Positions 13,301 through 41,756 of a DNA stretch of 64,000 nucleotides are shown in pieces. The DNA is from Blasia pusilla (taxonomy: Eukaryota). Where the stretch lies: assembly GCA_050084515.1 (NCBI GenBank), contig CM114271.1, forward strand, positions 39,246,001 through 39,310,000, read 5' to 3'. Position 1 is the first letter of the stretch. Every line of letters starts with the position of its first letter. The notes under the pieces are model-generated. The model was not told the DNA's origin, ran no database searches, and worked only from the letters and a program-made list of their open reading frames with translations. The translations under genes were made by a program, and so were the position numbers.

Positions 13301-13564
13301 GGGCCACTTGACCTTCCCGGGGATTTCTCTTCACAGGCCGATCTAGCCTCTCGGGCGGTACCGTCTCTTTCCTTTACTGAACTCTTAGCTTCTGAAGATG
13401 ATTATTTCGAAGGAGTTGCAGGATCTGGAATGGCCCCAAATGCCAGTTGGACGGCAGAGATGTACAATTTAGATGGTGGAGCAATTGCACCTGTTCCCTC
13501 CACAGATGAAATTGCTGGTTTTGTTGGTCTAGGTTCAGGGTCTGTTCCTGACAAGATGCCATAA
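4337..13564 (+). CDS. PTM: PTM-like DDT/PHD chromatin protein (Tudor-like N-terminus, DDT, three PHD-type fingers, AT-hook-like motifs). Exons 4337-5904, 6109-6822, 7218-8667, 8909-9203, 9496-9620, 10047-10573, 10717-10745, 11211-12272, 12834-13564
   Basis: FVGRTVRKHF...YKVKYADGDREELD (Tudor-like); DLFQVYSVLRSFS..LSPFALEEF..DWTLLDNITWP (DDT); DGNLDECVLCGMDGSLICCDGCPAAYHARC..WFCPEC (PHD); EKCGWCISC; WWRGGRLSR; CEHCKVWYHGDA..GFKCHKCR. All introns are GT-AG with consistent phases. Confidence 0.9.
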
Positions 13565-19053: not shown

Positions 19054-20410
19054 GATCTCGTCTCCTCCTCCTCCTGCGAAGCCTTCCAATTCACAGCTGA
19101 GTGATCAGCGACAGAACTTCGGGGAAGTAGTCACGACGGCGCTGGAAAATCTGCGACGCAACCCTCATGTTGCAATCGTGGAGCGAAACCGACTCTCGGG
19201 ATACACCGTCGCCATTTCTCGTCGCTTCGAATTCGGGCGCCCCTCTAAAACCAGAGAGGCATTTCCAACTTCCGGAACCGCAACACAACGACGTGCGTAC
19301 GCACTCCCGACACTCCTTCTCATCCGCCCTCGACCCGAGCGCCCCACAGATGAAGCTTCCGTCCCTCTCCAGCGACCCGATCCTCTACGGCAGTGGCGGA
19401 AACCGACGAGCATGCAAATGCAACTCTGCCACAGCGAAAGTGAGTCAGAAACTTTAAGGCCACGGCCAACGAAGCCCGCGAGCACTAGAAACAACGATCG
19501 CTCTCGACAGCTTCGAAATTCCGCCACATCAGAAACTGCGCACACATCGGCACACAACCCGTCGCGCGCGAGCGCACCCGAGCGAGACTCCTCGCACTTT
19601 CAACCGGCGCTTGGCGACATAATCCCAGCCCGGGCTCTCATTCATCCACCCAGCACTTCTACCACACTCGGCTCGACAAGCCCACCAATCAGGAGGCGCA
19701 GGCGAGCGGCCACAGCGGGAAGAGTTCGGAGGAACCCCCGCGGGAGCCCTGTGGGGAGGACGGGAATAGTTACGGGACCGGTCCCCGCAGTCACCCCGCT
19801 GCCAGCGACGGAAGAATCTCGTCTCGGCTGAATCTCGGGGTGGGCCCGCGCATGTACATTCCCGCCCGCGTCGCAACGCAAGCTCCGACCTTGCGCTTGA
19901 ATAATGTGTCCCGTCTGTCGCGTCACACGGCACGCACTGCCAAAATTAGACGAAGGCTTATCTTCCGTGATTGGACGTCAACCCCGTTCGTGTTGTTTTC
20001 TTCCTCAAGGGAGGCGCGGGCTTATTTACCGCCTGCTTGGAAAAGATAGGGCTTTTTCTTACCTCTGAACCGTTCTAAACGGCCTCTTCATCCCACCAAT
20101 CGGGAGCCGGAGGAGGGACCCGCTTGCTCCTGTCCTAAGGTGGTAACTTGTGGCCCGCCTCTCTGTCGTGTTTTACCGGTTGCTTCTTGTTCGACCACAT
20201 TGTAATGGAGTTTGTCCTTTGGTTGGAGAGCCTCCTTTAGGCGCTTGGAATTAAACGTGTGGGGCCGCCCCATTCGTCTATGGAACCCCTCCTCCCGTAT
20301 TGACACGTGTGGTATGGTCTCTTCCCATATTGACACGTGTAATTTTTAACATAAGGAGTTAACAGGTAATAGACGTCTTTCCCGTAAGCTGATTCATCCG
20401 TGCATAGTGA

Positions 20411-21035: not shown

Positions 21036-24000
21036 TGTCGTGCGCCTACTCTCCTTGAACCGTAATCTTGTTGTTGCGGAAGCGTGCGTTCAGTAGGTCA
21101 TGCTCTCAACGTTGATCCGCATCCAAACACGCATTCTGGTTAGTCGGGTCTTGGATCAATCAACGGGCTAACGTTTCGAGTTCTCGTCTCGATCTCTCAT
21201 CAAGCTTGACCTTATTTGTTTCACGGTTTACAACATGGGTAAGTCTCAAAAGACTTGGGACAGACTTTCTGGTCGGTTCAAGAACCTCAAACCGCGTTTC
21301 GTGCTTGGCGGTTCCAACTGTCCGATGGACATCCAATGAGTCCCTAACCGAGACTCGCACGAAGTGAATCTCGGGTTGGAATCCAAGTGTGGCGTACAAA
21401 GTCCACTCCCTTGGATCAGGTTTGGGTTTCGAGTTCCAATGCCAAACTCCCGTTCCATCCCGTGCCTCTGAGACGCTGTTTGGTGCTCAAAGTGGGGATT
21501 CGTGTTCCAAGACATCATGGAGAGACTCCTCCCTTACTAGTATTTCTGGGGATTCGGGGTTCCCTACATTTAGGGAAAGACACCCGGGCCTCTCCAATTG
21601 GCCCTCAACCAGATTGCTCTCACAGTCGTTTTTGGCCACTACGCTTCGTGAGCGTGGAGATGGCATTACTGTCTCACGTTCAGAGAAGATTACAAAGATG
21701 ATGGTGGACGTACCTACCCTTAGAGCCTATGCTTGGGCCGTTTACCTCAAATTCATGGCAAGTTGCGGTTGCTAAGATGGCAGAGATGTCGTTAGACCCG
21801 TAATAGAGTGTATCATGGTTTTTGTGGATATTGTCTTCCTTAATAATATGGGAGAGATCTTCTAGTTGGTTTGTCCAAGGGGAAGAGTGTTTAGTCCGCA
21901 TCGCATCTTGTTGGATTTTTCATGCACCTACTCCTATTGAACGTCAATCTTTAGTATTTCAGAAGCGTACGATTAGTAGATCACGCTTTCCTTATTGATC
22001 TACATCCAAACACACTCATCTTAGCCAGTTTTTGGGTAACCTAGCCACATGTCTCCCCAAGTTCTCATCTCACACTATCCAACAAAATTAAAAATTCCTA
22101 ATCCCTCACTTACAATATGGGCAAGTCTTCCTAGACTTATGACATCCTTCCTATATAGTCCACACACCTAACACATCGCTCATAAGCTCGGCGGTTCCAA
22201 TTTTCCAATGAATCTCGAATGACCCAAGACTCCTTCGAGATTTATTGGAAAGTTGCAACCCAATTTGCAACCGAAACCGAAGAATTTAGTTGTGGCGAGT
22301 ATTAGCCTTGGACATCCTACTGATGAGTCCATGGTGCGAGCCAAGGCGATAGTGATCGATGCCGAGTCCGATGACGTATTGGTTGGAGTAGCAGTGTTGA
22401 ACCGGATGGGATCTTCCCTAGATTTCAAGGAGGAGTGAACATCCTATAGACTAGGATGACAGCTTAGTGATGGGCGACTTAGCTTGTTACCCGTTTGATT
22501 TACGCGTGGAGTGAACGAGCGATGGCCTGGAGAGATGGTGACATTAGCAGCATTCAACACCGCCATCACTTGGCCTAGTGATTTGATTGAGGGTCATGTT
22601 CATACGATGATACCCTTGGACACCAAACCGATTGTATGGCGTATCCTAAAGAAGGGTATTCGAGTGTTGGATCATTATTGCGTCATCAACTATTTTTCTG
22701 GAAGGAGTGCGCGTACAATTGTATTTATATGTTGAGCTTGGTGATGTTCTGAGTCGTGTTTCACTATGACATGTAGCACACTTACGCCTCCGTTTTCTCG
22801 ACTTGTTTTCTGCGTCTGCCGTACAGGGGTACTAGAGTTCCCTACCGAGGGACATTTCATTGCTCGGGGCGTAGGACTTGGAGCAGGTAGGGACTATTGA
22901 TTTGGTCATTGGTGGTTGGCCATGTGAGGGCCACTTGAGTGTTGGACAAGGTAGCGGGTTGGCGATCACTTCTTCATGATATGGAACCCCAAAATTCCTA
23001 ACTATGAAGTCCTTGTAAACTACTTTACGTTTGTACACAAGGAAAATGACACAACTAGTGTTAAACCCTATTCGAGCAGGCCTATTGACATCCATGGATT
23101 GCTATATAAGGACATACAATGTACAATCCCACATCCTTCCGTACGTGACTATATGAAGAATCATTGGAGTTGGAGAGTGCATGACTTGGTTCATGAACGC
23201 CTTCCCAAAGTAATAGACTAGATAACGAGTCAACCAGTGCCTATCTACAAAAAGAATCTTGACATGATACGGATTAAGGAAAGGAAAATCGGTAATAACT
23301 CGTGCTCCACCCCTATCCATAATTGACAAACATTCTCTACGCTCCTCTTGAATGGGGTTTGGCGCATTTGCTCTCTCAAGAGGGGTAATCCACTCTTATT
23401 GGGAAAAGAACAAGCCAAACCATCCACTATTTCTAATATGACTAAACTCCCTTAAGGTGATAAGTCTCACACTCTAAAATCCTCTCGGAGACTAGACCAT
23501 GGTCAAGTTACTCTCCCAAGAGGGATAATCCACTCTCCTTGGAATAGCAAGCAATCCCAAAGCCATCCACTCAAGAGTGACACGAAAAACTCAAGATGTT
23601 AAGTAGAAGGTGATGAACCCTTGAAGGTCCCTCCTCTTCACATACTCACAAGGGATCCACAATAGTACAAAATAGGCTAATCTTATCTTGTGCCACATGG
23701 CTCCCTCTCAAGGCTTAGCCAATCGTATTTTGACACAAGTAGATTACCTCTTATCTCTTCCAAAATATCCTCTTTTACACCCTTCATATCTTCCAAACTA
23801 CCCCACCAACCAAGACTACTTTTGCTTTTGTTTCATTAAAGCACCAACCCCATTATTTTACTTTTCTAATCCAATTTGTATTTTTTAATTTTTTTTCCTA
23901 AAGTTGGGCCCGTGCAAATGAGTCATCCTAAAAAGGTTTAAACATGGGAATTTCATTTTCCTAGACTAATTTACTTAATACTAATAAAACTCTCTTTAAC

Positions 24001-25093
24001 ACTTAATGTTAGAGAAGTTTACGTAATGGGTGATTTTACTATACAACAATGCACAATATTTTCCAATTTTGTGAGTTTCCACGCTTCTTATATATACAAG
24101 GAGGCCGAACCTGACTTGGTTTGGGATGACCAGGTACAGCGGTTGGTGGAGCCCAATGCCGATGAGCGAGAGCGAGCGATGGGATTTCCCAAACGAGTGA
24201 AAGCATTATCGTCACTATTAGAGGCATAATGACAACATATCCTCGATCAATCGATGGACTTAAACTGCTTGAAGTGGATCATCAGCTTAGGAGTAGTTGA
24301 GCAGTGTTGGATGAGATTGCGACATGTCACAATTGTTGTATTGGTAAGCCCCATGCCTATGGAGACGGTTGAGGCAGTGGATAGGGGCGAGACTTGAGGA
24401 GATCGACACACCAAGGGTGATCAGGAAAGACACCCTTGGACTTCTTGGAAAGTTTTGCAGGTACGCCAAGAGATGGTAGCCATATCATCGAGCGTAGTTA
24501 CAGGTACTTATCGTGGACGAGATGAGAGTTTGTAGTTGGCTGCAAGGGAGAAGTTGAGTCATGTTGTTTGAAATGGGTTTCTAGCATAACAACCACCAAT
24601 ACCCACGCCGAAGAGTCCTACCGTGGTCATGATGGAGACTTGGGGGCCAGATATGGGCCCCATGGGCCAATATCTCATTCTGTACTCATGCGTTTGCTGA
24701 GATCTTTTATGCGTTGGAAGCGTCTCAAGATAAGATTTTCAACGCGCCCTTACTTGTTAAAAATTCATCTTGGAGCTAAACGTTATGGTCCAAAACACAG
24801 TCAAATTCCCCAAACGCTGGTGGTGTTCCAAAACGGGTTCTCACCTCTTTGGCAACCAACCTTCCAAGACTCAACTCATCTCAAGTCTTGGCTCACGTTT
24901 GGTCTAGGTTTCTTGGTCGCGACCACTAACGCATGAAACGTACAACTCTGTTCCGCATTTTGTCTCTTGGAATTTTCCAAGAGACCTTTCCAAACGCCTC
25001 TCCAAAGCGCGAACATCGCAGCGTGAGTCCACTTGAGTTCTGAAGTTCCGCTTGGCGCCTATTTGGTGTTGTTTGGTTATGAGGGTCGTGACA
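21036..25093 (-). mobile_element. Solo LTR (Gypsy LTR family A) with 5-bp TSD CTCTC, interrupted by a ~3-kb insert at 21639-24664
   Basis: TGTCGTG...CGTGACA termini; CTCTC at 21031-21035 and 25094-25098; both halves align to the intact solo LTR at 52657-53684. Orientation taken from the PBS next to the related LTR at 27468. Confidence 0.85.
21639..24664 (+). pseudogene. Fragmented protease-DNMT segment of the methyltransferase-carrying Gypsy family (copy 2), broken by unrelated inserts
   Basis: Protease C-terminal half DVLVGVAVLNRMGSSLDF (~22370-22425); KGIRVLD (start of motif I, ~22650-22672); LPRDISLLGA*DLEQVGTIDLVIGGWPCEGHLSVGQGSGL (motifs III-IV, PC at 22920-22925); EPNADERERAMGFP and HILDQSMDLNCLKWI (motifs IX-X, ~24148-24280). 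Collinear with copy 1. Confidence 0.85.
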
Positions 25094-26043
25094 CTCTCAA
25101 TGTCAAACCAAACCCACTCTTCTAATGAGAGGCTTGGGTTACACATACAAGGTAGGCAAGACCATAGCTCCGCCGCCTCATGCCAAGAGGTTCAACAAAG
25201 AGAGAATGAGCTCTCAAGCTATCTCTCCTTGAGGTATACCCCTCCCCTCTCCCAAGCTCTCTCCATGGTAACCTATGCTCCCAAGTCAACTCCTTGGCTC
25301 TTGATTTGATGTAGGAGATCAAGGGCCACTTACCAAAAATATAAAGTCGATCATATACTCAAAATGGTACTTACCTAAAATAATAAGTTCCTCAATATGA
25401 CTCCAAATGAGCGGAAACAAAGGGGAAACCTGCTCTCTCAAGTTTTCCGGGGCTTCAACAAGTCATCCTCGACCTACTGACCATGTCCTCCACTACTCAC
25501 GAAGGCGCTCTACTAGATCTCACATATCTATCCTAAAAACGTGACAGTTGTCGTGCATATACACATTACTACACAACATACATCGTTGTCACCCAACACA
25601 CACACAAACACGCACGATACCATGCCAACTCATGGCATCCAAACAACGAGACAAGAAGTACCAAAATATCTCCAATTGCTCCCCTAGCTGGTGGTTAGGT
25701 CCCTCTAACTCCAGATAGCCATCTATCCCTACCTACCATGACATACATCTCTCAGACGCTAAGAGCAAGAAGGTCGGGTGCTCATGTGGCCCCATCGTTA
25801 GTCACCTTCTTGTCATCCGTGTCATAGACACAAGTTGGAATGTAGAACTACCTACTCTATGTACATATGGGATACATCCATCATCCCTGAGGAACCGTAG
25901 TGAGAGGTGGCGTCAAACATGCCATATGCCATCCTCTCGAACACCCATCACAAACTAGCATAGTGGATGCACCACGGGCGGAACCACACAACATACACCG
26001 CAAGCCTGTAGGAACTATTGCTAAGCTCGGATCAATTGTACCG

Positions 26044-27323
26044 TCAATGTTCGGAAGATGACATGGTAGAGAGCCCCAGTTCCTTCACGATTCTCGGGCT
26101 TAGGAAGGAGTGCGAAGCATCTGTATCCACGAGCAACAACACATCGCGATCAGCAATCTTGGATCTTAGGTACACCAAATTGTGCGTCCTCTTGGTAACT
26201 TGAAGGGATGTCTCGAGATCGCCCGCCAACAGATGCTTAGTAGCAAACGCAATCATACTCCCATTACTAACCTTCGGTTTCAAACACCCTTTCGCCAGGT
26301 GCCCAGGTTCGCCACAGTTGTAGCAAACGACCTCGCCGTTCCGTGACTTTGAGTGTTGTCCTCCTTTCGGTTTCGCATGAAGTTCCACTCGTTTTGCTGC
26401 CGGGACAGACGACTCTCTTGGTTCGTGCTGGCCCCCACTCCAGCCTCGTTTGAACGCCTCCTTATTGTTCGACTTCTTTGAAAAACCTTTTGGCTCGAAG
26501 GGTTTCTGGGTTTGGACCTCATCGTCCCCAATCCGCTCCACTAGCCTCAGAAGATCCGCGCAGGTCTCTGGCAACGTCGGCATTCGGTAAAGGGCGTTTT
26601 CAGCGCTCGGCTTGAGTCCACTAATGAAGATAGCCTTCTTCGCGTGCTCATCCATCTTTGGACTAGAAGTCAGTTTCGCACTAAACTCCCTCACATACGC
26701 GCTTAAGGAACCACTCTGCCGCATCCGCACGCATTCCACCGTGTCGCGCAACCCTTGGAACGCCGGAGTGAACCGATCCCCAATCAACTCCTTGAACTCC
26801 TCCCAACTCAGAGGTGACTCGCCGCCCAGATATTCCTCTCGTTGAGCTTTCCACCATTGTAGAGCATGATCCTTCAAGAAAGTAACGGCTACCGTCACCT
26901 TGTCCTGCTCAGCTGCCCTCTGCGCCTCGAAGTACAGTTCCAATTCCGTAAGGAAATCCTTCACTTTCCGTGAGCGCCCCACTCCAATGAATGGCGTGGG
27001 CAGGTTTGTCTTGCAGAGCTTTTTGCCGCACCCAGGGTTCGAGTGGCCTCTAACTCTGCAATCCGCTTGCTTTGCTGGGACATCTGCTCCACCAACACCT
27101 TCAACAAGTCCAACGTCTGGCTCGAATCCGTCCGTTCCCCTGAGTTTGGGCCCACTGGCCCCGCGGAAGGATTCGCCTCCAGAACGTCCTCACGATTGGT
27201 GTTCAGCTCTTCAGGAGTCTTCGTCTCCTCCATAGCTTCACGGTCCGCCATTGGTTCCTCTCTTGGTTCACGTCGCTTGATTCGGCGCTTCTTGGGTTGT
27301 TCTCCCTCGATCGCCATTTCCAA
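26044..27323 (-). pseudogene. Gag and protease start of a Ty3/Gypsy element (5' half), frameshifted and truncated
   Basis: DFLTELELYF..FLKDHALQWW..SWEEFKELIGDRF..MRQSGSLSAYVREF (retrotransposon Gag); CYNCGEPGHLAKGC (CCHC knuckle); LLVDTDASHSF (protease DTG mutated). Confidence 0.9.
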
Positions 27324-27453
27324 GCCAACTCACTCAGATCTCCTCATCGTTTCTTGCGTCCCTCCTCGAGTGTCTGAGTCTAGCCGCTACCTTTGAGTTT
27401 CCCCAAGCGTCCGGTTGATCCCACGACCCCAAGTTCTCGCTCACCAAGGATTT

Positions 27454-27465
27454 GCTCTGATACCA
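27454..27465 (-). promoter_or_regulatory. Primer-binding site complementary to initiator tRNA-Met
   Basis: GCTCTGATACCA is the reverse complement of TGGTATCAGAGC, 2 bp from the LTR end. Confidence 0.9.
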
Positions 27466-27467
27466 CT

Positions 27468-28470
27468 TGTCGCGCCCCTACTCTCCTTGAACGTCAATCT
27501 TTAATGTTGCGGAAGCGTACGTTCAGTAGGTCACGAACTCATCGCTGATCTGCACCCAAACACGCACTCTTGTTAGTCGGGTCTAGGCCACCCAGCGTTC
27601 CAACCCACCGATTCCTCAATTCGGCGTCTCATCAAACTCAACCTTCCTTAGCTCCTAGTTTCCAAAACATGGCAAGTCCTTCAAGACTTGGAACAGACTT
27701 CTTGGTTAGTCCAGGGATCTGAAACGGCACTTGCGCGCCTAGCAATCCCAACTGTTCAACGGTCCTCGGGTGAGTTCCGAACCGAGACCCAAGTAATTGA
27801 GTCGCGGGGTGGAATCCAAGAGGGATGTCTAAAATCGCCTCAATGGACTTGGTGCAGGTTTTCCAACCCATCCCCCAAACTCGCGTTCCGTTCCATGCCC
27901 TTGGGCCGCCCCGCGGCGCCCAAAGTGGGGTTTGGGTTCCAAGCACTCTCGGAGACCTTCCCCCTTACTAGTACTTCTGGGGTTCTCCAATAACCCCTCC
28001 CCTTTGGGAAAAGAGGGTCGGGCCCTTCATTGTGGCCCTCAACCCGACTCCATTTACAGTCGTTTTCGGGTTGTATCTTGGCCTCTGTTTATGCGTTTGC
28101 AGCGATCTTTAGTGCGTTTGGACCGGCTCTCTATAAGCTTTCCAACGCACCCTTATTTGTTCCAAACGCATCTTGGTGCTAAAAGTTATGGTCATAAATA
28201 CAGTCGGAAACTCTCAAACGCTAGTGGCGTTCCAAATCCGGATCTTTCCTTTGGCAACCTACTTCCTAGACTCGACTTCTTTCAAGTCTCATTCCGCGTT
28301 TGGTCCCGGTTTCTCAGTCGCGACCATAACATCTGAAACGCGACTCCTCGCTCGCGTCTCGTCTCTTGTCTCCTCTTTGAGACAACTCCAACGGGCAAAC
28401 CATCTTAGCGTGAGCCCGCTAATGTTCCGATGTTCCGCTTGACACTTGTTTGGTCATGAGGGTCGCGACA
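27468..28470 (-). mobile_element. 5' LTR (family A) of the gag-bearing element, inserted into the integrase of the DNMT-Gypsy
   Basis: TGTCGCG...CGCGACA inverted termini, about 1.0 kb; PBS and gag follow on the minus strand; integrase-like sequence abuts at 28471. Confidence 0.9.
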
Positions 28471-31400
28471 AAGGATGTCTGCTTGTTGAATCTGTATCCC
28501 ATCTCCAACCACCGCAATTGAAGGTCCCAATCTCCTAGGTGACCTCTCTGCAAGCCATACTTGTGTAGTCCTCTCTTCACCCTCTGCACAACCCGCTCCT
28601 CTAGTCCATCCGCCTCAAAATGATCTCGCGAAGTAGTGCGGTGGTCGATCAGTGCCTGATCACACAAGGCTTGAAACTCCCCACGGAACTCTGTACCCTA
28701 GACTGTCAACACCTCAGCTAGTGCGCCGCAATCACTCAACACTCGATCTAGGAAGGCATACGCTACTCCCTCACTCGCTTTGTCAGGCAATACAACCAAC
28801 TCTATCCACTTCGAGAAGTGCTCGACCATCACCAACACATGACAACTATGATGCTTTGTCAAAGGCAAAGGTCATGCAAAATCCAAACTCCATCTATAAC
28901 CTAAATCCATGATCGGAAGTGGATGCAACTATGGAGTTGGAGCATTGAACAATGCTCCAACTCGATCACATAAAATGCATTTGGCAACAAACTGCTGAAC
29001 GTAAGTCTGCATGCCTCGCACCAATATTGAATCTGGAGCAATTTGTATGTCCGCTTCATTCCAAAATGACCCAACTTCTTGTGGGCATGACGCACCAAAC
29101 GTGCTCTCTAAGAAGGATGAGGCACTACACGCACTCTACCATCCTCCCATACTTGCAACACATGTGTGCCCTTCCATCGGAACCGTCTGGCTTGCTGTAG
29201 GATCCGATCCCGCTCTCTAGCACCCACTGTGCTCGCGACGCTGCATGTAGGCAAGTAGTCCAAGACCACTCCATCATCGTGAATGTCTCAGCCACCTGTC
29301 GTCTCCTCACCAGCCTCTGGATCTAAGGACTCTCCATCAGACCTCGCCATCGAAGTCTCAGCAATCTAGCTCTCCATAGCCAACAAGCCCAAATAGGTTG
29401 ACGCATACAATCCTGGCACCAACTCCTCATCACTCTCACCATGCCAACGAGCTCGAGTCACATCTCGTTGACTCGAGCATGGGTTATGGCTCAAACCATC
29501 TGCATCCTGGTTGAGCGTCCCAGGTTTATGCACCACTTGGAAGTCATACTCCTACAACAAAAGAGCCCACCTCGAAAGCTTCGTTGTAAGCTTGTCGGAC
29601 TCCATCAACCACTTAAGTGGCTAATGATCAGTAATGATGGTAAAGGGATTTCTGAATAGATAACATCTGAAATGTGCGACAACCCACACTGCAGCCAAGC
29701 ACTCACTCTCATACGAGCTATACTTTGCCTCTGCAGCGTTGTTCGAGCAACTAGCATAAGCCACCACAAACTCTCTACCATCATCGTCATGTTGGGTGAG
29801 CACGGCTCTAAGCCCCAACATGCTCCAATCGGTATGCAACTAGAAAAGACGCCCCCTGATCGATCTCCTCAATATGGGCACAGACGTTAATCTATCCTTG
29901 AGCATATGAAATGCTCTCTCTTGCTCATCCCCCCAGTGCCACTACTGATCCATCTTGGTCATCAAGGTTAGCGGCTTCGCAATTGAACTGAAACCCTTGA
30001 CGTACAGTTGATAGAAGTTCGCCAATCCCATGAATGCATGGACTCAACTCACATCTTGAAGGCGTGGAATGTGTGAAATATCCTCTACCTTTGTCTGTTG
30101 CATACCAAGGCCCCCAGGATATATCGTATGACCCAAGTACTCAATCTGGTCGTAGAAGAACTTGCACTTGCCTGGAAGTAGCTTGAGCCCATGTAACTGC
30201 AATCGTCAGAACACCTCCTCTAGATGTCGCTCATGCTCCTCAACCGTGGCGCTAAAGACTACAATGTTATTAATATAACAACTAGCAAAATCCAGACCTG
30301 CAAAAATCCTATCCATGACCCTTTGAAACTCATCCGGGGCCTTCTTTAACCCGAATGGTAAGAACCGCCACTGGTACAAACAATCCTTCCAGTGAGGATC
30401 GAAGCCCCAAAATGCCGTCTTTTGCATGTCCTCCAATCTGATAGGCAGCTGATGATATCTGGTCGCAAATCCAATGAACTGAATTTTTTTGCATGCCGAA
30501 TCGCATCAAAGATCTCCTCAGGGGTGGGCATGGCATACCTATCAAACTTTGTCTGCCGATTGATATGTCGGTAATCTCCACACATCTGCCTATCCGTCCA
30601 GTTGCCATGCACATCCTTCTTGGCGGGCATGACAGTGGCAGATGCATACTCTCCATGCGACATCTCCACTACTCCTGCTCCAACCAAGTCTTGGCTCCTA
30701 CTTTGAATCAGAGCCCTCTCCATGTCACTGTACTTGTAGGGTCGCCGGAAGGTCGGCGTGTCACTCGATAACTCAATGCAGATCCTTGGACCCTTCAGCC
30801 TACCCAAATCATGCATGCTAAATGCAAAACAACTCCTATAACTCCTAAGGAACTAGTGTATGCGGCGCTGCTCTCCTCCTGTCAACTTAGGGCCTATATC
30901 TGGCTCCCAACTCTCTGGCGCGGGTGTCGGTAGTTGCTATGGTGCAACCCCGTCTCGGATAATAGAACTCTCATCTCCACGTGCAGTACCCCGAACCACA
31001 CTCGATGGTGTGGCTATCATCTCCTGGCGTACCTGCAAAACATCCCAAGAAGTCCAAGGGTGTCTCTCCCAATCATCCTTGGTGTGTCGATCTCCTCGGG
31101 TCTCGCCCCCAGCCGCTGCCTCAACTGCCTCGGTAGGCATGGGGCTCACCAACGCAACAACTCTAATCTGTCGCGTCCTCAAATGACGATGCTCAACTAC
31201 TCCTAAGCTGAAAATCCATGTCAAGCAGTTCAGGTCCATTGCCTCACCCAAGACATGACGTTGTGATGCCTCTGATAGTGATGGTATTGCCGTCACTCTT
31301 GTGGGGAATCCCATTGCTCGCTCTCGCTCATCGGCATTGGGCTCCACCAACCTCTATACTTGGTCATCCCAAAACAAGCCACGTCCGGCCTCCTTGAATG

Positions 31401-33108
31401 CATAGGAAGCGGGAAAACTCACTAATGTGGGAAAGGTTTCCCGTGGCCTGCCAATCCTATTAACCATAGTCAATGGCGGTCGATCATCTAGCCTCACTGC
31501 TTGTGATCGACGGCCAGGATCCAATATAGAATCCACCAAAAAATTGGAGGGACACTCCACTCTCGCATATGCCTTCCATAACACCTCGTGTGGTACAAAG
31601 TTGGTCCACCAAAGACGCGGGTAATGTGCTTGTGAACCCACACTTGCCGCATCTAACAACACTTTTAGGCGGATCCATGCGCGCACCTGATGTGCACTCG
31701 TCACCATGCAGGACCTCGAATCGCCAAAAATTGGCACATTCTCCAGCGTGCAAAACAACAACTAAACCAATACGAATTCCTCCAAAGAGATCCGACACCC
31801 AAATACCTTTCTCTGGGATGCACCACAAAATCGGGGTGGTGTCCAAAGGGGTTATAGCAGCACTCCTGGCTACTTGGGGTTCCTCTGACCTATCACACTT
31901 TGGTGCAAACGTCTCGCTTCACGCGGTTTGCACATGCTCAGTGGCTAAGCGTCGAAGCTCCTCAATCGAGCCCCAAAGCGACACCTCTCCTCCACGGACT
32001 GATGCGGCTACCATGACACTCCTCTGCATAGAAATGTCACGAACTGGAGTATCCTCTGCATGGACATGTCCCTCATTGAAATCACTAGGCCAAGTGATGG
32101 CACTGCTAAATGCTACTAAGGTCGCCATCTCTCATGTCTCTCATCGCCTTGGCTCGCACCACGGACTCATGTGTAGGATGTTCCGGGCAAATCCTCACCA
32201 CGACCTCCTATCGGGTGATATACTGCCTGGTACTCGCTTCACTCAAGGATGTGTTTATTCGGAATGGATAACGCTCCACATTGGCCTCGTCAAGCCCAAT
32301 CCTCTGAATGACACTTTCCCCAACATCAAGAGTTGCGCTCCCGAATCTAACAAAGACGCGCTACGCACTAAAATCTCTATCTCCGGAACTCACCAACTGG
32401 AAGACCTCTCCCCGGTTATCCAGCAACACAACACTAGGAGAAACCATGGCACACTCTATCGCGGGTCTAGCGGGCATCTCCGCCATCCTAGCAGCCGCAG
32501 CCTGCCATGAATCTGATGTGGACGGCCCCAACATCCGCTCCAAGGGCAGATCCATCACCTCCTCTGCAATCACCTTTGAACGTGATGCAGGAACTCCAAA
32601 TCCACACTCACATAGCATAGCGGCTAGCCGAAAAACCTCAGCGGGCGTACCTCCCAACGTCATAACATCGGAAGCAAAAAATAAAGGAGCGCAGTACACA
32701 ACGGTGGCCGCCCCCAACAACATGCTCGGCACATGCCCCTCCTGAGCATCAGCAATAGGAGTCTTCGCACTCGCTTCTCCCATCGCCCTCCGTGCCTACA
32801 CATCAACAACATCACCTAATCTCCGGGAACTCTGATAAGGACTCCTCCACGGGCAGCTTCACCACCTTGTCGGGAAACTCTAGCTCCTCATCCCCCAACG
32901 GGACCACCTGATGCACGATCTCTAGGTCCATCCTAACCGGCCACTTGCTTTGGTGCCCTCTCTAGCCCTCGGTCCGGACGTAACTCAAGATGTAAAATGA
33001 AACACTTGGCACGTGTGTGACCATACCTCTGACAATAGTCAGACTGATAACCTCCTGGTGCAGCACCATCTCCTCCTCCATGCTGAGGCACACGTCCATG
33101 ACCCTAAC
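28471..33108 (-). mobile_element. Decayed Ty3/Gypsy internal region: Gag knuckle - protease - C5 DNA methyltransferase - RT - RNase H - integrase (copy 1)
   Basis: SDYCQRYGHTRAKC (~33045-33003, CCHC with first C changed to S); LLDSGAQ (~32354-32334); DNMT motifs (31846-31200); RT RRPYKYS..EYASATVMPAKK..MCGDYRHIN..YAMPTPEEIFD..LPFGLKKAP..YINNIVVFS; RNase H HTDWSMLGLRAVLTQ..VVAYAS..ECLAAVW..ITDH; integrase HKKLGHFG and ADGLEERVVQRVKRGL. Many stops and frameshifts. Confidence 0.9.
31200..31846 (-). pseudogene. DNMT3-like C5 cytosine methyltransferase domain inside the Gypsy pol (motifs II-V deleted in this copy)
   Basis: DLFGGI (motif I, 31792-31775); LENVP (VI); LLDAASVGSQAHYPRLWWTN (VII/VIII); ERERAMGFP (IX); QRHVLGEAMDLNCLTWI (X). 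Motifs are in unpermuted order. Confidence 0.85.
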
Positions 33109-34104
33109 TGTCGCGCCCCTACTCTCCTTAAACGCCAATCTTTATCGTTACGGAAGCGTACGTTCAGTAAGACATCATCTCATCGCCAATCTGCTCCCAA
33201 ACACGCACTCTTGTTGGTCGGGTCTGGGCCAACCAGCATTTTAACCCACCGAGTTCTCAACTCAGCGTTTCATCAAGCTCAACCTTCCTTACTTCCTAGT
33301 TTCCAAAACATGGCAAGTTTTTCAAGACTTTGAATAGACTTCCTGATTAGTTCAGGAACGTAAAACGGCACTGGCGCACCTAGCGATCCCAACTGTTCAA
33401 CGGACCTCGTGTGAGTTCCGAACCGAGACCCAAGTAATTGAGTCGCGGGGTGAAATCCAAGAGGGATGTCTAAAATCGCCTCCACAGACTTGGTTCAGGT
33501 TTTCCAACCCAAACTCTCGATCCGTTCATGCCCTTGAGCCGCCCCGTGGCGCCCAAAGTGGGGTTCGAGTTCCAAGCACTCTTGGAGACCTTCCCCCTTA
33601 CTAGTACTTCTGGGGTTCTCCAATAACCCCCCACCTTTGGAAAATAAGGGTCGGGCCTTTCATTGTGGCCCTCAACCCGACTCTACTTATAGTCGTTTCC
33701 GGGTTGTTTCTCAGCCGCTGCTTATGCGTTTGAAGAGATCTTTAGTGCGTTTGAGCCGGCTTTCCATAAGCCTTTTAACGCACTCTTGTTTAATCCAAAC
33801 GCATCTTGGCGCTAAAAGTTATGGCCATAAATACAGTCGGAAACTCTCAAACGCTAGTGGCGTCCCAAATCCAGATTCCTTCCTTTGGCAACCCACTTCC
33901 TAGACTCAACTCCTTTCAAGTCTTGTTCCGCGTTTGGTCTTGGTTTCTCAGTTGTGACCACAACATCTGAAACGTGAAGCCTCGCTTGCGTCCTGTCTCT
34001 TGGCTCTTCTTCGAGACTACTCCAACGCGCAAACCATCTTAGCGTGAGCCCGCTAATGTTCGATGTTCCGCTTTGGCACTTGTTTGGTCATGAGGGTCGC
34101 GACA
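33109..34104 (-). mobile_element. 3' LTR (family A) of the chromovirus pol-bearing element, preceded by a polypurine tract at 34105-34115
   Basis: TGTCGCG...CGCGACA termini; CTCACCCCTCT reads AGAGGGGTGAG on the minus strand immediately upstream; similar to, but visibly diverged from, 27468-28470. Confidence 0.9.
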
Positions 34105-34819
34105 CTCACCCCTCTTTAGAGGTTGATGCCCTCATCAACGCAAACCTTTGTTATGTCAAGTTTCCTGGGCAGCCTACCCCTTGACATTGAATTGTGTTCT
34201 AGTGGCTAACCCGCAATTCCTCTTAGTCTACAGTTGTCGCTTTGCACCACTTAGAATTATTAGCCTCTCCTCTTTGATAAGCGTGGACTCGTTCCAAAGA
34301 ACTAACCTATCAACTAAGCTAATTAAGTGTGCAACCTTAGACTCTTCTGGCTCATTCTTGTAAACATCACACATGTTTACATGGTCTACAAATCGTACTA
34401 TTATTGGGTCGCTCTCGTATTCGACTTAGGCGCGTCACTAAGTTTACTTATGTAGCCACAAGTAAGATCACCCCAAGCCCCAAGACAGATTCATCTGCCC
34501 CGCGGACGCTAGGGCGAGCCCAAGTGTAATCCAACACAAGGTCCTGTTCTAGGTGCTTATCCACATACAAGCTCTCACCTCAAATACTCATTGTCTGTCC
34601 TCTTGACTTACATCCTAAGCCTATAATGAAGGACTCATAGCCATGCCTTACCACATACAAATTGCAATCAACTCTGGCATCGAATCTCCAAATCCATGCA
34701 TTCCTTTATTGCAACACAAGCATGTTCTAGTTACAACGGCCTTCGGCCCAAGATTCCAATGGGTACAAGTCATGTTTCTAGCTTTTCCTCGTACTAACGT
34801 ATGTGGTTCTCATGCGTTC

Positions 34820-37076
34820 GCTTGAAGTCTCGCAACAACTCTTGCGCGTGTTCCAAATCCGCCTCCGCAATCCAAGTCACCTCCTTCACATGGTAGCCCT
34901 TCCATTTAACCAAGTATTCATACTTGTTGGCCTAACGCCTTGAACGTAAGATGGTCTCCACCTCAAACTCTGGCTCTTCATTTATGATCACCGGGTGCGG
35001 TCTCACCACCTGTCTCCGCTCGAAACGTCCATTATCTTGAAGAAATGTCTTCAACAATGACACATGAAAGGTCGGGTGAATCCTGAACTCATCCGGCAGC
35101 CCCAATGTATACAGCCACAATCACATACGGTCCAACATACTTGGCAGATAGCTTTGTAGACAACTCTTTCGGAAGAGTGAGATTCTTCACACTCAACCAC
35201 ACTTGCTCTCCAACCTGGAATCGTACTTCAGTACGGCTTTCCACCCACAGACGGATGGAGAGCATGCTTAACGTACCTCATTTGAGCCTTTGCAGGACTT
35301 CGCCTTGCTCGCTCTTCCCGTTCTCGCATCTCTACCAACAAACCTTGTGCCGTCGCTTGTCGTGTACGTGCTAATTTAGTACCCTTCTGGCTCTCCTCCA
35401 TTTTCCAGGAGAAACGGAGATTCTCCAGTTGCAGAATGCTTGGTTGAGTTGTAGCAGTACTCCGCCATGCTCAGCCACTTGACCTAATCTCGTTGATCAG
35501 CATTGACATAATTCCTTTAGTACTAATTCACGATTGAGTTTACCTTTTCAATCTGTCCATCCGCCTGTGGGTGGAAAGCCGTACTAAAACTCAGCTTGGT
35601 CTTAATCCTCCTGAACAAGTGCTTCCAGAAAGCACTGGCAAACTTTGGATCCCGATCTGAGACAATGCTCCTCGGCAAACCGTGAGCACGCCACCAGCTA
35701 TCCAGAAACAGTTGCGACGTCGTATAAGCCGTTGCGGAATCCACCGTCGGCACGAATCTCGCCAACTTGCTAAACCGATCAAAAATCACAAGTATAGCAT
35801 TGTATCCCTCAGATTCCAGAAGACTCGCGATGAAATCCATACTCACACTTTGCAAGGGTCCTTCTGGGATGGGCAAGGGATGCAACAAGCCTTGTTTCTT
35901 ATTATAAGAAACTCTATTTGCTTGGTAGGTCACACAGGTCTTCACATATTGAGCAACATCCTCTTTCATGTTGGGCCAAAAAAACCGCTTCGACAGAATA
36001 GCTAGCGTAGATTTTCTCGTTTATGTCCTGCCAAGGGTCCGTCGTGACACTCCGCTAACACATTGGTTTGCATCCTGCCTTGCCCCACATAGATCCTACT
36101 CTGCTTGAACCTTAGTAAACCGTGCCTCAAACTTATGTTGGCCACCTTCTCACCCTGCTTCAACTTCCTCAGGTACTCCCCTGTGTGAGCATCCTTCATA
36201 TATCCTTCATGAAGCCTTCTTTCCAGGTCTGTTTCTTTAGGGAACATTGCTCTCAAGACCTGTGTCGTCGATGGCATGTGTTCCTCCTTGCGACTCAACG
36301 CATCTGGAATCACATTATCTTTACTTGGCTTGTGAATCAACTTAACATCCATCAGCGCCAAGGTATCATGCCATCTCAATTGTTTCGGTGTCACTCGATC
36401 ATGGGTCTCAAAATACTAGAGTGATATATTATCGGTGAATACTCGAGTCGTGTGGAGCCCTAAATAATGCCGCCATTTCCTCAAGAAATGGACCACCGCG
36501 AACAACTCTTTCTCGTGAGTGGGCCATCTCCTTTCAGTATCGCTAAGCTTCTTGCTCTTGTATGCTACAAGTCTCCCTTCTTGCAACAACATTCCTGCAA
36601 CCGCGAAATCACTAGCATCGGTATGCACTTCGAAAGGTTTGTCAAACTCTAGCAGCTTCAATATTGGTTCCTGGGATAGAATCTGCTTCACTCGATTGTT
36701 CGTCTCATTAACTTCCTGGGTCCATGTCGTGTTGGCAAAATTTTCCGTCCAATCCGTGAGAGGTCTCACAATTCGCGGAAAGTTCTTCACATAAGTGCAA
36801 TAGAACAACACCGCACCTATGAACCTCCTCATCCCCTTCACGGTGGACGGCGGTTCCCATTCGACAATCGCTTTCACCTTCTCCATGTCCGGACTGATGC
36901 CATCTGCGCTAACCATGTGACCCAAGAATTTGATCTTGCTCAAACCAAATTCGCTCTTCTCCACATTCGCATACAGTTGATGTGCCCTTAGCTTCGACAA
37001 TACCGCTCTCACATGTCGAACGTGCTCCTCTAGGGACTTCAAATAGATAAGTATGTCATCAATATAGTTGATAACA
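34820..37076 (-). pseudogene. Chromoviral Ty3/Gypsy pol 3' half: RT (from YIDD) - RNase H - integrase - chromodomain
   Basis: YIDDILIY..EEHVRHV; HTDASDFAVAGMLLQ..ELFAVVH; CHDGPLAGH; SVSMDFI..DRFSK..IVSDRDPKF..STAFHPQADGQIE; KYVGPY; IHPTFHVSLLK; chromodomain FEVETILRSRR*ANKYEYLVKWKGYHVKEVTWIAEADL. Confidence 0.9.
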
Positions 37077-37677
37077 TGTCAGCGATGTATATTCTATGAC
37101 GATGTGGATTCGCACGACAACCTGCTGAGGCCCCGATAAATATGAGAGAGAAGGTTTTTCCCTTCATTTCGGCTCATTTGGAGTCAAATTGAAGAACTTA
37201 CTATTTTAGGTAAGTACCATTTTGAGTATATGGTCTACTTTATATTTTGGGAAGTGACCCTTAACCTCCTAAATTAGGTCAAGGGCCAAGGAGGTAACTT
37301 GGGAGCATAGGTTATCATGGAGAGAGCTTGGGAGAGGGAGGGGTATACATCAAGGAGAGAGAGCTTGACTGCTTATTCTCTCTTTGTTGAACCTCTTGAC
37401 ACGAGGTGGTGGAGCTATGGTCCCTTGTCTTGTGAGTGTAATCCAAGCCTCTCATTAGGAGAGTGGGTTTGGTTTGACATTGAGAGAGACATGTGAGAGT
37501 GCACACATGTGAGAACTATGATGTTGTGAGAGAGATTTCACCTTATTTTACAAAGAGATATTTTGGTACTTATTGTCTCGTTGTTTGGATGCCATGAATT
37601 AGCATGGGATCGTGCGTGTTTGTGTGTGTCTTAAGTGACAGCGATGTATGTTGTGTGGCGATGTGTATGCGCATGAC
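37077..37677 (-). mobile_element. Repeat family C, copy 2 (inverted), truncating the chromovirus RT
   Basis: The reverse complement matches 20820-21035 plus 25094-25460, and ends with a short restart of the unit's first ~40 bp. Confidence 0.7.
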
Positions 37678-39899
37678 AGTCTCCTTGAAGATTTCATGAA
37701 ATGTGTGGAAACATTTATCATTGAAGGGGGCACGCAAGTGCACATAATTGTGGATGTGATTGACTTTAAGTTATGTTAAACAATTAATGAATCGGGGGTA
37801 GAACCTTGGGGGTGTAAATAGGCATTCCCTAACAAATGAGAATAGATTTAGCAAGGTGAGAGAACATTGAGTAGTCAGATTCCATGAATGGATGGTCCAA
37901 ATATAGCCTATCAACACAAAAACAACCACCTCAAACACCCATATTAGTACATATAAAGGTTTCAATGTTGATATGTTGCCCTCGTCAACGTTTGGATGCG
38001 CCGCCATCCAAAATTAAGTTGCTCCCTTTGAAGCCAAAAATTCAAGAACTAGTGAGTGGTATTGAGAAAACATAAACAACGGAGATACAACCTCCTCCAA
38101 AATTCATGGAAGTAAATATAAAGGTTCCATCCTTGGTCATTTCCGTCATTTGAAGTTAGGATGCACCGCATGCAGGTACTAAGGTCCTTACATATAGAAA
38201 CGCAAATACATGAATTAGTGAATGGTGGTGAAATAACCACCATTCACTAATTCAAAATGTGAAAACCACGTATTCACTTTACCTATCAATAACATCTGAC
38301 ACACGTGCTATTCATGGAACAGAGCGGAGGAAAAGATTGATGAAAATACGTCACTCAAGTAAGGAGGAAATAATGATCTAGAAGCAACAAATCAAGTAAG
38401 TACGAGTTAAAAAAAGTAGTGGAACGTACTTTATTCCATGTCATATGCAGGCCACATGGAGTTTCATATCTCCCAAAATAGAGTCTCTTACTTTCAAGTT
38501 ACTATGTTGGAAGACATCATGAGTTCATTTAACGAAGCCAATGAAAAAAATGAATATCATCAAACGGGATTGAAATACAAACGTTAACGTTAATGCAACT
38601 TGTGGGATATTCACTTCAAGTTAATCTAGGATCAATGCGATAATAGGCATGGCCTATCTTAATCCACATACAACTTGATTTGTTCAATGTAGCCTAAATG
38701 AGTAATTCACGTTGAGCTTTTGCAAGGTTGCACAAAAATGGACTTGTCCGTCTCTTGGACAGACTTGTTTGAATAAGTCTAGACATTCCAAATTGGTCCC
38801 TTGCCCAAGTTATTTTGGGTATTTGGGTTTCCCGCGCAGATTTGGGAGGCAAGAACATATGCATGCTTAGAGAAAGCTATATATCATCTTGACTTATAGA
38901 AAGCCGTCTCCTCCAAATAATATAGGATAACCCCTATCATGTACAATATTGCTCCATCACCCCAATTGTTATAGGACTTGACATCAATCACTATCGCTTT
39001 GGCCTACACCTCTAACTCATTGATTAGATGTTCTCGTCTAATCCTCAACAATATCTCATGTTGGGTGATAAATTACATCATGATGGACCCATCCAATGAT
39101 GTCTAAATCTTGAAAGAAAATTTTTGAGCATTAGTCCGAGTTAGGCCCAAATTTGTGAATGGCGCCTTTCCCAACTTCATAGGCTAGAAGAGGACCATGG
39201 GTGTGGTACATGTTCCTCCCCCTCTAATCTACTTACCACATGCTCCTCTTGAGTATCACACGTGGTTGCCAAGATACTTAGCTATCCCATCTCTTGCCAT
39301 GCATGCACAACATCAACACTCATCCTCCGAGTGGTCTGATCGGGATCCATCGACAGAGTCCTAATTGCATCAAACAATCTAAATGATCGAGGGAGACATG
39401 TACGTCTATTGGACTCTTCTCTCTATAGATTCAACTCTATTATGGCTCCACATGTAACCATAGGGGTGGCCTCTATCTATAAGATCTTGCACATCCATCC
39501 ATGATCCTCTATAGCCCTACCTACTCCATATGATGTGGATGCCACTGACCCAACATTAGGAAATCTCAACCATTCTTGCAATGTCTTATTGTAATTGCTC
39601 TATTTGAGTGGCGATCATAGCCCCACTCGGAGTCACACCTAGGGTCTCCCTCAACCTGTGTAGGTGGTGGGCCTCTATCTTCTCTACGAGTCCACAAGGA
39701 TGAAATGTAATCATGACCTTGACCAATTAGAAGAACCACCTTGGATCCCAATTTTACCTAAGTGTCCAAAAAAATTGGAACTTCAAACCTCCATAAATTC
39801 TTCACATTTGTACCTTTGCACTTGTGCATTTTGTTGGGCTAGAGGGAACCTATCAAACCCTTTGGAGAGGGCCTATCTATTTTCGTTCCTTCCTCTCTA

Positions 39900-40660: not shown

Positions 40661-41756
40661 ATGGGAATTTCTATTTTTGAGGGTTTTTCCCAAATTATCC
40701 CCTAAAGGGATTATAGTTTCTTATTTACAAATTTGAAACATTACGGTGAAAAATACCTATTTTGGATATTTTTCATATAACTTTTGGATTGTTATCGGAT
40801 GATTATGAGTAAGTGAAATCTGAAACAGAAACGAAAGTTTCCTGTAGAAAATCAAACACCTCTTCAAAAAATCGTGACGAAGTCTAAAACACAGAATGAG
40901 ACAATGGAGAAGAAATAATCAACTAATCCCAACAATTATCCTTGGGCCTAAACTCGACGTGCATCTTTTGTAGATTCTCCCAGCTGGCGACAGTTGCAAC
41001 CCGCGCTGCCGACTAGCTTCGGTCCGGCTCCTTCCCGTCCCTTGGCTACGGGATTGTTCCCCGTCCGATGCGTCCAGGGTGTCCCTCCTGCCGCCGTCGG
41101 AAGGATCCTGCCGCCATCGGACATCCTTCCGACGGCGGCACTTGAAGTTCGCAAGAGAAAGGAGCAGAGACCCCACCCCCCGAAAGTCCCGAGCGCAGCC
41201 TAGTTGTCTCTTTCTCTCTGAGCCGAAGAGTCGGTCATAACCAGGTGGTTTTCTAATCTGAGCGGTGGTTTTCTAATCTGAGCACGGATTCACGCACGTG
41301 AAATGAGAACCTCGTCAAAAGGCGCGAACCTTATGCGTCCCGTGTGGGAACAGGTGTAGTGGTACGCTGGATCGCAGAGAGTGGCGGAACAGGCGCGGTG
41401 CTCGGGAAGGGTGGCGCAGAGTGGCGCGTTGGCACGGCACAGTCCGCATGCACGTGGCGTGGGATCGTAACCGCCACGGTCCTGGAAGTCCGAGCGCTCG
41501 CGCAATCGCCCGAGCTTCGGCACAACCTTCTTTCCCAACGCAGATCTCCGCACGGCTCTGCTTACGCTTACGGATGGAAGGAACTCGTCGCGATTCACGA
41601 TCCGTTTCACATACAGGTGCACTTGTTTGAATTGCATGAATCGGAAGGGGAAGGATCGGGAGCTCATTCGATCGGAAACACTTCCGCAATACTCTTGATC
41701 TGTGTGTAAATTGATTGCGGCAGAACTGCGAGAGGAAGAGATTTGAAACTGGAAGT

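Follow-up and report, generated by a model that had tools for sequence, protein, structure and literature searches.

A decayed Ty3/Gypsy fragment of Blasia pusilla, very probably from a bryophyte retrotransposon family with a DNMT3-type methyltransferase in its Gag-Pol polyprotein

The window analyzed here is a stretch of 64,000 nucleotides of Blasia pusilla (GenBank assembly GCA_050084515.1, contig CM114271.1, positions 39,246,001 to 39,310,000 of the forward strand), and all coordinates below count from its first letter. Its minus strand holds, from 33108 to 28471, a retrotransposon fragment that we call D1. We consider it highly likely that D1 is a decayed internal fragment of a Ty3/Gypsy family of bryophyte genomes, whose Gag-Pol polyprotein is ordered as gag, protease, a DNMT3-type cytosine-C5 methyltransferase (C5-MTase, below also DNMT), reverse transcriptase (RT), ribonuclease H (RNase H), integrase and PHD finger. 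An initial annotation, made from the letters alone, had read here a Gypsy pol carrying a non-permuted DNMT3-type C5-MTase between protease and RT, and this is borne out by the motif strings, by the Pfam matches to RT, RNase H and integrase and by the relatives. The coordinates given there (28471-33108) do contain the element, but as bounds they are exactly the gap between two long terminal repeats (LTRs) of another element.

D1 (28471-33108, minus strand) is LTR-less and heavily decayed and runs from the gag knuckle to the integrase core, collinear by tblastn with the related proteins P0053, P0261, P0267, P0272 and P0280. Its Gypsy-type polyprotein is spread over three minus-strand reading frames. 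Pfam, run on the whole frames with stops read as X, found in order RVT_1 (E 3.5e-17), RT_RNaseH (1.4e-30), Integrase_H2C2 (1.5e-5) and rve (1.3e-6), with RT_RNaseH_2 also among the matches, all on the same strand and in the order of a Gypsy pol. The fragment begins with a degenerate gag CCHC zinc knuckle (32981-33040, minus), read as YCQRYGHTRAKC at 33037-33002, with Ser at the position of the first Cys; over 20 amino acids it is 65% identical to residues 335-354 of Marchantia P0261, in which the knuckle is intact. Pre-protease and protease follow (32142-32750, minus, with 2 stops), at 36-37% identity by tblastn to P0261 521-707, P0267 28-212 and P0265 272-472. The protease active site LLDSGAQ lies at 32353-32333 (minus), and Pfam places Asp_protease_2 at the matching place in P0053. 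Next come the DNMT lead-in and motif I (31742-31975, minus; DLFGGI at 31792-31775), which in alignment A1 fall on columns 61-144, together with motif I of seven relatives, and match P0009 1230-1309 by tblastn. The C-terminal half of the DNMT (30937-31761, minus; alignment A1) carries, besides a linker, motifs VI (LENV, 31746-31735), VIII (AHYPRLWWTN, 31629-31600), IX (ERERAMGFP, 31329-31303) and X (RHVLGEAM, 31260-31237), all on the minus strand, and is 52-62% identical to bryophyte proteins bearing PF00145. It shares a single frame, with 3 stops, with the start of the RT, down to 30346. RT and RNase H (29153-30909, minus, 8-9 stops), identified by Pfam, have 58-63% identity to Marchantia P0267, and the integrase (28464-29311, minus; H2C2 zinc finger and catalytic core), which ends at the start of a flanking LTR, is 69% identical to Sphagnum fallax P0272 1103-1240 and matches Marchantia P0280 333-403 at 68%. 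Every motif string listed in the initial annotation is thus present, on the minus strand and in the order claimed.

The last part of the polyprotein seems to have been displaced. A PHD finger at 25860-26066 (minus; Pfam PHD, 3.1e-8) matches Marchantia P0280 540-608 at 71% identity and both P0278 and P0048 at 51-53%. In P0280 this segment comes after the end of the integrase, an end that matches 28676-28464 of the window at 68%. RNA and DNA reads from other copies diverge from the window beyond 26066, and since they continue differently a breakpoint can be placed there. Judging from these alignments, the PHD finger (26066-25860) is likely D1's own tail.

The identity of the insert was approached with the 275-amino-acid read-through of 31761-30937 as a query against 1.84 billion representative proteins. 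It gave 742 matches at E<=1e-3, 381 at E<=1e-10 and 20 at E<=1e-30. These 742 homologs, together with the match of the knuckle to P0261, indicate that the initial reading does not rest on a chance resemblance. PF00145 was detected in four of the five long matches, five of ten shorter ones and five of seven named bryophyte proteins, just upstream of or across the matched part. One relative, P0162, 57% identical to the D1 segment, matches DNMT3A by sequence at 6.9e-11. A profile of 63 relatives, compared with solved methyltransferases, matched DNMT3A (2.1e-24), DNMT3B (3.9e-22) and DNMT3C (4e-22) and, more weakly, tobacco and Arabidopsis DRM (1e-12 to 9e-11), M.HhaI (5.6e-9) and DNMT2 (ca. 1e-5), while no DNMT1 chain was found at E<=0.01. 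The alignment of the profile with DNMT3A is collinear across motifs I-VIII and IX-X. An AlphaFold model of P0162, built on the 63-row alignment, had a predicted local distance difference test score of 85, mostly above 90 over residues 1-330, and Foldseek searches with it gave DNMT3A, DNMT3B and DNMT3C alone among the matches listed, down to rank 47 (best E 5.5e-19, template modelling score on the target ca. 0.8). In the relatives the motifs follow the order I, IV, VI, VIII, IX, X; the permuted order of DRM was not found among them. Tested through these relatives, the insert appears closest to DNMT3 among the solved methyltransferases, in unpermuted order, so that the description "DNMT3-like, not DRM-permuted" stands by the profile and fold matches. 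As to the motifs themselves, I, VI, VIII, IX and X were correctly read in D1, but motif IV is absent from it, as are the others from II to V; a second fragment in the window (D2, below) keeps motif IV, and the relatives keep them all. D1 is a dead member of a C5-MTase family, and it is the family that qualifies as such.

The same architecture recurs outside the window. The metagenomic protein P0053 is a single open reading frame (ORF) of 2188 amino acids with zf-CCHC, Asp_protease, DNA_methylase (978-1226), RVT_1, RNase H and integrase. Marchantia P0267 has DNA_methylase, RVT_1 and RNase H in this order, and in Marchantia P0260 and P0262 one alignment to the window passes from the DNMT into the RT. 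We fetched 51 related metagenome loci, 24 of them of at least 6 kb, and mapped 11 of these. In all 11 the DNMT is found after gag-protease and upstream of RT-RNase H, and in eight a PHD-bearing tail follows the integrase; the remaining three end sooner. One locus (L027) is open over more than 2100 codons but for two in-frame stops, and another (L003) has a plain direct repeat pair, 94% identical and 8.7 kb apart, being the only related copy with visible repeats. These data bear on a rather different explanation, namely that the DNMT segment was once part of a DNMT3 gene or pseudogene of the host and came to adjoin Gypsy debris by an accident of nested insertion. At least four element fragments and two solo LTRs are indeed nested at the locus, so that chance neighbours are common. 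However, P0053 and Marchantia P0260, P0262 and P0267 show the protease-DNMT and DNMT-RT junctions again in one frame, the order holds in 11/11 loci, D2 has the same protease-to-DNMT order, and the DNMT and RT trees split alike, all of which makes a host origin of the segment exceedingly improbable. Relatives lacking the insert, or carrying it out of frame, would have spoken against an insert belonging to the family; it is in frame in P0053, and the recurrence of the order in P0267 and the mapped loci points to a family trait.

All the named relatives are land plants. Among 27 matches of 483-2000 amino acids, the 16 with a named host are all from bryophytes (13 gene models of Marchantia polymorpha, two proteins of Calypogeia fissa and one of Sphagnum fallax), and the 107 matches of 151-482 amino acids include Calypogeia fissa, Riccia sorocarpa, Marchantia paleacea, M. 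polymorpha and Sphagnum jensenii by name. No Klebsormidium sequence was present among the named matches. The highest identity of any match to the DNMT query was 62%, which indicates that the collections searched do not include the host's own proteins. The relatives, together with candidate intron-bearing genes read by eye, make a land-plant host likely, probably a bryophyte. One M. polymorpha cluster at 90% identity comprises 18 member sequences. The earlier remark that no land-plant family of this kind had been described holds to the extent that no paper describing these bryophyte relatives was found in the literature available to us, in part as partial texts. An RT tree with the chromovirus of the window as its root places D1 beside Marchantia P0267 as its sister (support 0.999). 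When proteins with both DNMT and RT matches were collected (129, in numbers skewed by the choice of query), the DNMT was located between RNase H and integrase in 113, 91 of them with a PHD finger, and before the RT in 16. We refer to the before-RT arrangement as type A and to the other as type B. In a DNMT tree of the collected relatives with an arbitrary root, the 18 before-RT rows (18/18) form one clade against 112 of the other kind (support 0.915). The RT tree splits nearly in the same way, with one before-RT row (P0374) falling with the other kind. A broader reading, possible but in our judgment somewhat short of probable, is that of an undescribed green-plant Ty3/Gypsy lineage with a DNMT3-type methyltransferase and a PHD finger at the integrase end, in which the enzyme sits between RNase H and integrase in green algae and between protease and RT in bryophytes after a single relocation, to judge by the congruence of the two trees, and which may have been active recently in Marchantia polymorpha. 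Among the collected proteins, a Gypsy polyprotein of 1974 amino acids with a PHD finger (P0346) carries the NCBI label "Minisyncoccia bacterium" from a metagenome-assembled genome; it is most likely a mis-binned eukaryotic contig.

The D1 copy itself is a functionless fossil. Against its relatives, its reading path requires at least five frame changes and passes ca. 17 in-frame stops. After motif I, ca. 100-113 aligned residues are absent (alignment A1), comprising motifs II-V with the catalytic Pro-Cys; DLFGGI and LENV are 28 nt apart, where the relatives have ca. 125 codons. The YxDD box of the RT reads YINN (ORF 30206-30505). The ca. 330 gag residues that precede the knuckle in Marchantia P0261 have no match anywhere in the window, in which no capsid was found, and the CCHC knuckle that is degenerate in D1 is intact in P0053 and P0261. 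Neither an LTR pair of its own nor a primer-binding site, a polypurine tract or a target-site duplication was found for D1, the flanking LTRs being chromovirus insertions. Since the related copy L003 has its repeat pair, this failure reflects truncation of D1 and not a trait of the family. The observed/expected ratio of CpG is 0.68 in D1, with an excess of TpG+CpA of 1.28, versus CpG ratios of 0.83-0.98 in the neighbouring chromovirus parts, a pattern that fits long decay under methylation. The initial annotation had also proposed that the element expressed its own methyltransferase within the polyprotein. For this copy recent expression is ruled out, given the lack of a capsid and of LTRs of its own, the deletion of motif IV and the YINN box.

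Whether the family encodes a working enzyme is therefore a matter of the relatives. We counted residues in 377 collected relatives (P0001-P0377), taking for each site the rows that cover it. The catalytic Cys is kept in 215 of 218 and the Glu-Asn of motif VI in 244 of 264; Arg-x-Arg is present in all the commonest forms of motif VIII, and motif I, which binds S-adenosylmethionine, is widely kept. In the type-A rows ENV is found in 18/18, and Cys in 16 of the 17 covering the site. In type B, motif VI is often Glu-Asn-Thr or Glu-Asn-Ala. The ratio of nonsynonymous to synonymous substitution rates (dN/dS) was 0.20 and 0.22 for two deep pairs of open copies. In intact relatives, the putative methyltransferase shares one ORF with protease and RT, keeps its catalytic residues and appears to be under constraint; conservation and dN/dS together lend thin support to a working enzyme in active elements.

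Several observations weigh against the reading of D1 as the remnant of such an element. PF00145 was found in none of the ten ORF pieces and none of the three read-through frames of D1 at E<=1, and phmmer against PDB with its own sequence gave no match at E<=10, so that the methyltransferase call on D1 rests on relatives that are 52-62% identical. Thus, of the domain searches proposed at the outset, RVT_1 and rve matched the window, but PF00145 matched the relatives and not the window itself. With motif IV missing, this copy is silent on activity. Three RNA runs, read to 6-12%, showed no expression of the family in the host, with depths of at most 1.5 across D1 and no more than 0.14 across the DNMT bins (30760-32087). 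The PHD finger could be the tail of another copy. Among the metagenome copies the DNMT is open in only 3 of 25, the other 22 carrying stops or frameshifts, and a third pair of open copies gave a dN/dS of 0.82, at a dS of 0.054. Moreover, the Pro before the catalytic Cys is replaced by Glu or Asp in 92 of 218 relatives (87 Glu, 5 Asp), and the only published assay of a Gypsy-borne DNMT3, that of KnitGypsy-Dnmt3 in yeast, detected no methylation and was called inconclusive by its authors in the available text of PMC5890265. These last two points would also suit a family-wide pseudo-enzyme, i.e., a methyltransferase-like domain kept for binding DNA or nucleosomes or as a spacer within Pol. We think this unlikely: a pure binding module would need none of the residues that are conserved here (Cys, Glu-Asn, Arg-x-Arg of motif VIII and motif I, with Cys and ENV kept in the type-A rows as well). 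Where Pro has changed to Glu (5 of the 17 covered type-A rows, 56 of the 112 type-B rows) the Cys is kept.

If the family encodes an active enzyme, the methyltransferase would be made with Pol and then either released or left fused. It might enter the particle, or reach the nucleus with the integration complex, and could carry out de novo methylation of the newly made element DNA or of adjoining sequence. Histone tails may be read by the PHD finger, which would then guide integration, akin to the chromodomain of chromoviruses. The proposal that such an enzyme travels in the particle and methylates the cDNA of its own element comes from de Mendoza et al. (2018; PMC5890265, as given in its available text), and for the present family it is an inference.

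The surroundings of D1 bear on where the element ends. Two direct repeats of 1 kb, 88% identical and with the termini TGTCGCG...CGCGACA, at 33109-34104 (LTR1, minus) and 27468-28470 (LTR2, minus), bracket the coding fragment exactly, as would be expected of a complete retrotransposon with LTRs of its own. We regard such an element as very improbable here. On the side facing D1 neither LTR has a primer-binding site or a polypurine tract: no primer-binding site or gag follows LTR1, no polypurine tract precedes LTR2, and D1's integrase abuts LTR2 without a gap. Instead, the polypurine tract AAAGAGGGGTGAG (34117-34105) lies directly before LTR1, and a chromodomain pol with RT, RNase H, integrase, SH3 and Chromo lies upstream of it at 37078-34815. 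LTR2 (28470-27468) is followed, 2 nt after its end, by the primer-binding site TGGTATCAGAGC at 27465-27454, which we take to be the usual plant site for initiator tRNA-Met, and then, at 27189-26044, by an unrelated open gag-protease ORF of 381 codons (Pfam Retrotrans_gag, Ty3_capsid, zf-CCHC and Asp_protease). Furthermore, 335 DNA reads (agreement 0.95), from other copies of the DNMT element, do not enter LTR1 but continue beyond 33105 in different sequence, those at 28470 run into many different flanks (agreement 0.34), some reads join an LTR edge to the polypurine tract and chromovirus interior, and the probable PHD tail lies beyond LTR2. LTR1 and LTR2 are not D1's own. LTR1 is the 3' LTR of one chromovirus copy (G_a), and LTR2 with its primer-binding site (27454-28470) is the 5' LTR of another (G_b), so that D1 lies between the 3' end of the one and the 5' end of the other. 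D1 is therefore an internal fragment bracketed by two later chromovirus insertions, one cutting it ca. 20 codons upstream of the gag knuckle and the other splitting the integrase from the PHD tail.

The two chromovirus copies are partial members of one family. G_a (34815-39183, minus) holds protease, RT, RNase H, integrase, SH3, Chromo, polypurine tract and LTR1, and G_b (26044-28470, minus) holds LTR2, the tRNA-iMet-type primer-binding site and the 381-codon ORF, which ends in protease, at the PHD finger. The LTR bins reach ca. 370-fold depth in the DNA run. An estimate of copy number from read depth was abandoned, as only 491 of 10,987 DNA reads were >=99% alike and the mapped stretch has no single-copy host gene; D1 bins are several-fold deeper than the least-covered ones. 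RNA reads cover 24784-26111 to a depth of 7-23-fold. In almost all of them the first mate is on the plus strand, and fixed differences from the window mark them as products of paralogous copies, which continue otherwise to judge by the loose read ends at 26066 and 25828. A 44-bp piece at 37076-37119 gathers 49-97 RNA reads per run and ca. 400-500 DNA reads, which on either side continue in sequence unlike that of the window; some abundant expressed sequence elsewhere in the genome shares the piece.

The window contains a second fragment of the DNMT family, D2 (21639-24664, plus strand), truncated and inverted, with 80% nucleotide identity to D1 over the DNMT end that both have (24059-24530) and a tblastn match to P0261 895-986 at 53%. 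In alignment A1 it keeps motif IV (GGWPCEG, 22911-22931) and motifs IX-X, and its order from protease to DNMT is that of D1. The fragment sits within a solo LTR, and a 5-bp duplication (GGCCA) borders it on both sides. It has no LTRs, is truncated at both ends and includes ca. 1 kb of unrelated sequence (about 23000-24050), yet the duplication is like that of a true insertion; it could be filler DNA from the repair of a break, or the duplication could be chance microhomology. The position of D2 between two parts of one LTR gave rise to the idea of DIRS-like split repeats in the order A, coding region, B. This was rejected: the LTR that surrounds D2 has a target-site duplication of its own, as an ordinary solo LTR does, and relative to the repeats D1 and D2 point in opposite directions. 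The solo LTRs, at 21036-25087 and 52657-53680, form a subfamily 86-89% identical between themselves and 72-73% identical to LTR1 and LTR2, with target-site duplications GAGAG and CACAA. The first of them is located within an inverted fragment homologous to 37120-37678, and reads lacking the insertion are present in both DNA and RNA runs. Candidate intron-bearing host genes were recognized by eye from ORF translations at 4307-13564 (plus), 17251-19104 (minus) and 41715-45704 (plus); among them are a large one with DDT-like and PHD-like stretches, one with an SPX-like N-terminus and one with a likeness to desiccation-related or ferritin-like proteins. For the candidate at 4307-13564 the observed/expected ratio of CpG is 0.45.

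An element-borne DNMT3 of bryophytes was not found in the literature searched, in which subscription journals were partly covered and to which the supplements of PMC5890265 and PMC12344493 may add some; "not described" is thus provisional for the bryophyte family. Its bryophyte membership, the order protease-DNMT-RT with a PHD tail and the Marchantia relatives appear to be unreported. As far as the accessible portions of these papers go, PMC5890265 describes a Gypsy-borne DNMT3 solely for Klebsormidium and shows activity only for dinoflagellate DIRS enzymes, PMC12344493 and a 2026 preprint speak of "streptophytes", PMC6453930 makes no mention of element-borne DNMT3 or liverwort copies, and PMC11982613 and PMC10952607 add nothing on element-borne DNMT3. 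The Marchantia methylome study (PMC5784723, likewise in its accessible portion) counts five DNA methyltransferases, MET, two CMT and two DRM, none of them element-borne. The relatives in Marchantia polymorpha, 13 gene models of 483-2000 amino acids, have gone unremarked under the label "hypothetical proteins", and annotators should be aware that DNMT counts in bryophyte genomes include retroelement copies. On the role of retrotransposon-encoded cytosine methyltransferases the Klebsormidium Gypsy assay gave no answer, according to the available text of PMC5890265. Marchantia can be transformed and edited, and so offers a land-plant system in which to ask whether the enzyme methylates its own DNA, helps or hurts the element or leaks onto host genes. 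If the reading of a green-plant lineage is true, a genetically tractable land plant would harbour de novo methyltransferases borne by retroelements, which could be tested there and might add to its methylation.

Elements of this kind are already known from KnitGypsy-Dnmt3 of Klebsormidium nitens (de Mendoza et al. 2018). In the text of PMC5890265 available to us, it is a Gypsy LTR element of a streptophyte host with an intronless, non-rearranged DNMT3-type domain in Pol, kept key catalytic residues and low dN/dS, all as here, but its host is a charophyte whereas the relatives found here are bryophytes; that text mentions no Marchantia, mosses or PHD finger. By description only, the two also differ in their repeats, which are DIRS-like and split in KnitGypsy-Dnmt3 and a plain direct pair (94% identical) in L003. 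According to the same source, SymbioDIRS-Dnmt3 and SymbioLINE-Dnmt of Symbiodinium are likewise retrotransposons with a cytosine methyltransferase in the coding region, the former of DNMT3 type and capable of de novo CG methylation in yeast. They differ in backbone (DIRS with a tyrosine recombinase, and LINE) and in their dinoflagellate host, and their captures are independent according to the authors.

Among cellular enzymes, DNMT3A, DNMT3B, DNMT3C and plant DNMT3 resemble the insert in the best profile and fold match, collinear motifs I-X and a short target-recognition region. Identity in the structural alignments is only 19-23%, and here the domain sits in a retroelement polyprotein. The companion readers of cellular DNMT3 are PWWP or ADD in animals and a DUF in land plants (PMC12344493, in its accessible part). 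Pfam detected neither PWWP nor ADD in any relative scanned, and none of the companion domains in P0053, P0258, P0261 or P0267; the PHD finger after the integrase is the one reader domain. Plant DRM proteins are DNMT3-related de novo methyltransferases too, but they match positions 28-157 of the profile alone, in contrast to DNMT3A, which is collinear over motifs I-X; this half-length match fits the rearranged domain of DRM as stated in the accessible text of the papers cited.

A further comparison is with the type B Gypsy elements (RT, RNase H, DNMT, integrase, PHD) of green algae and many metagenome contigs. Their DNMT, at 35-41% identity, and their RT, integrase and PHD finger are homologous to those of the present family, whose sister clade they are in the chromovirus-rooted RT tree. 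They carry the DNMT between RNase H and integrase and not between protease and RT, and their named hosts are chlorophytes, Monoraphidium neglectum, Chlamydomonas eustigma and Cymbomonas tetramitiformis being the three algal names among 116 matches. No paper describing type B elements was found in the literature searched; the accessible text of a 2026 preprint reports Cymbomonas elements of another sort, in which the 3' end of pol holds a DNMT4-like domain. Chromoviruses, of which two copies lie in this very locus, also have a chromatin reader fused after the integrase, but theirs is a chromodomain and not a PHD finger, and the RT identity to the chromovirus of the window is 28-33%.

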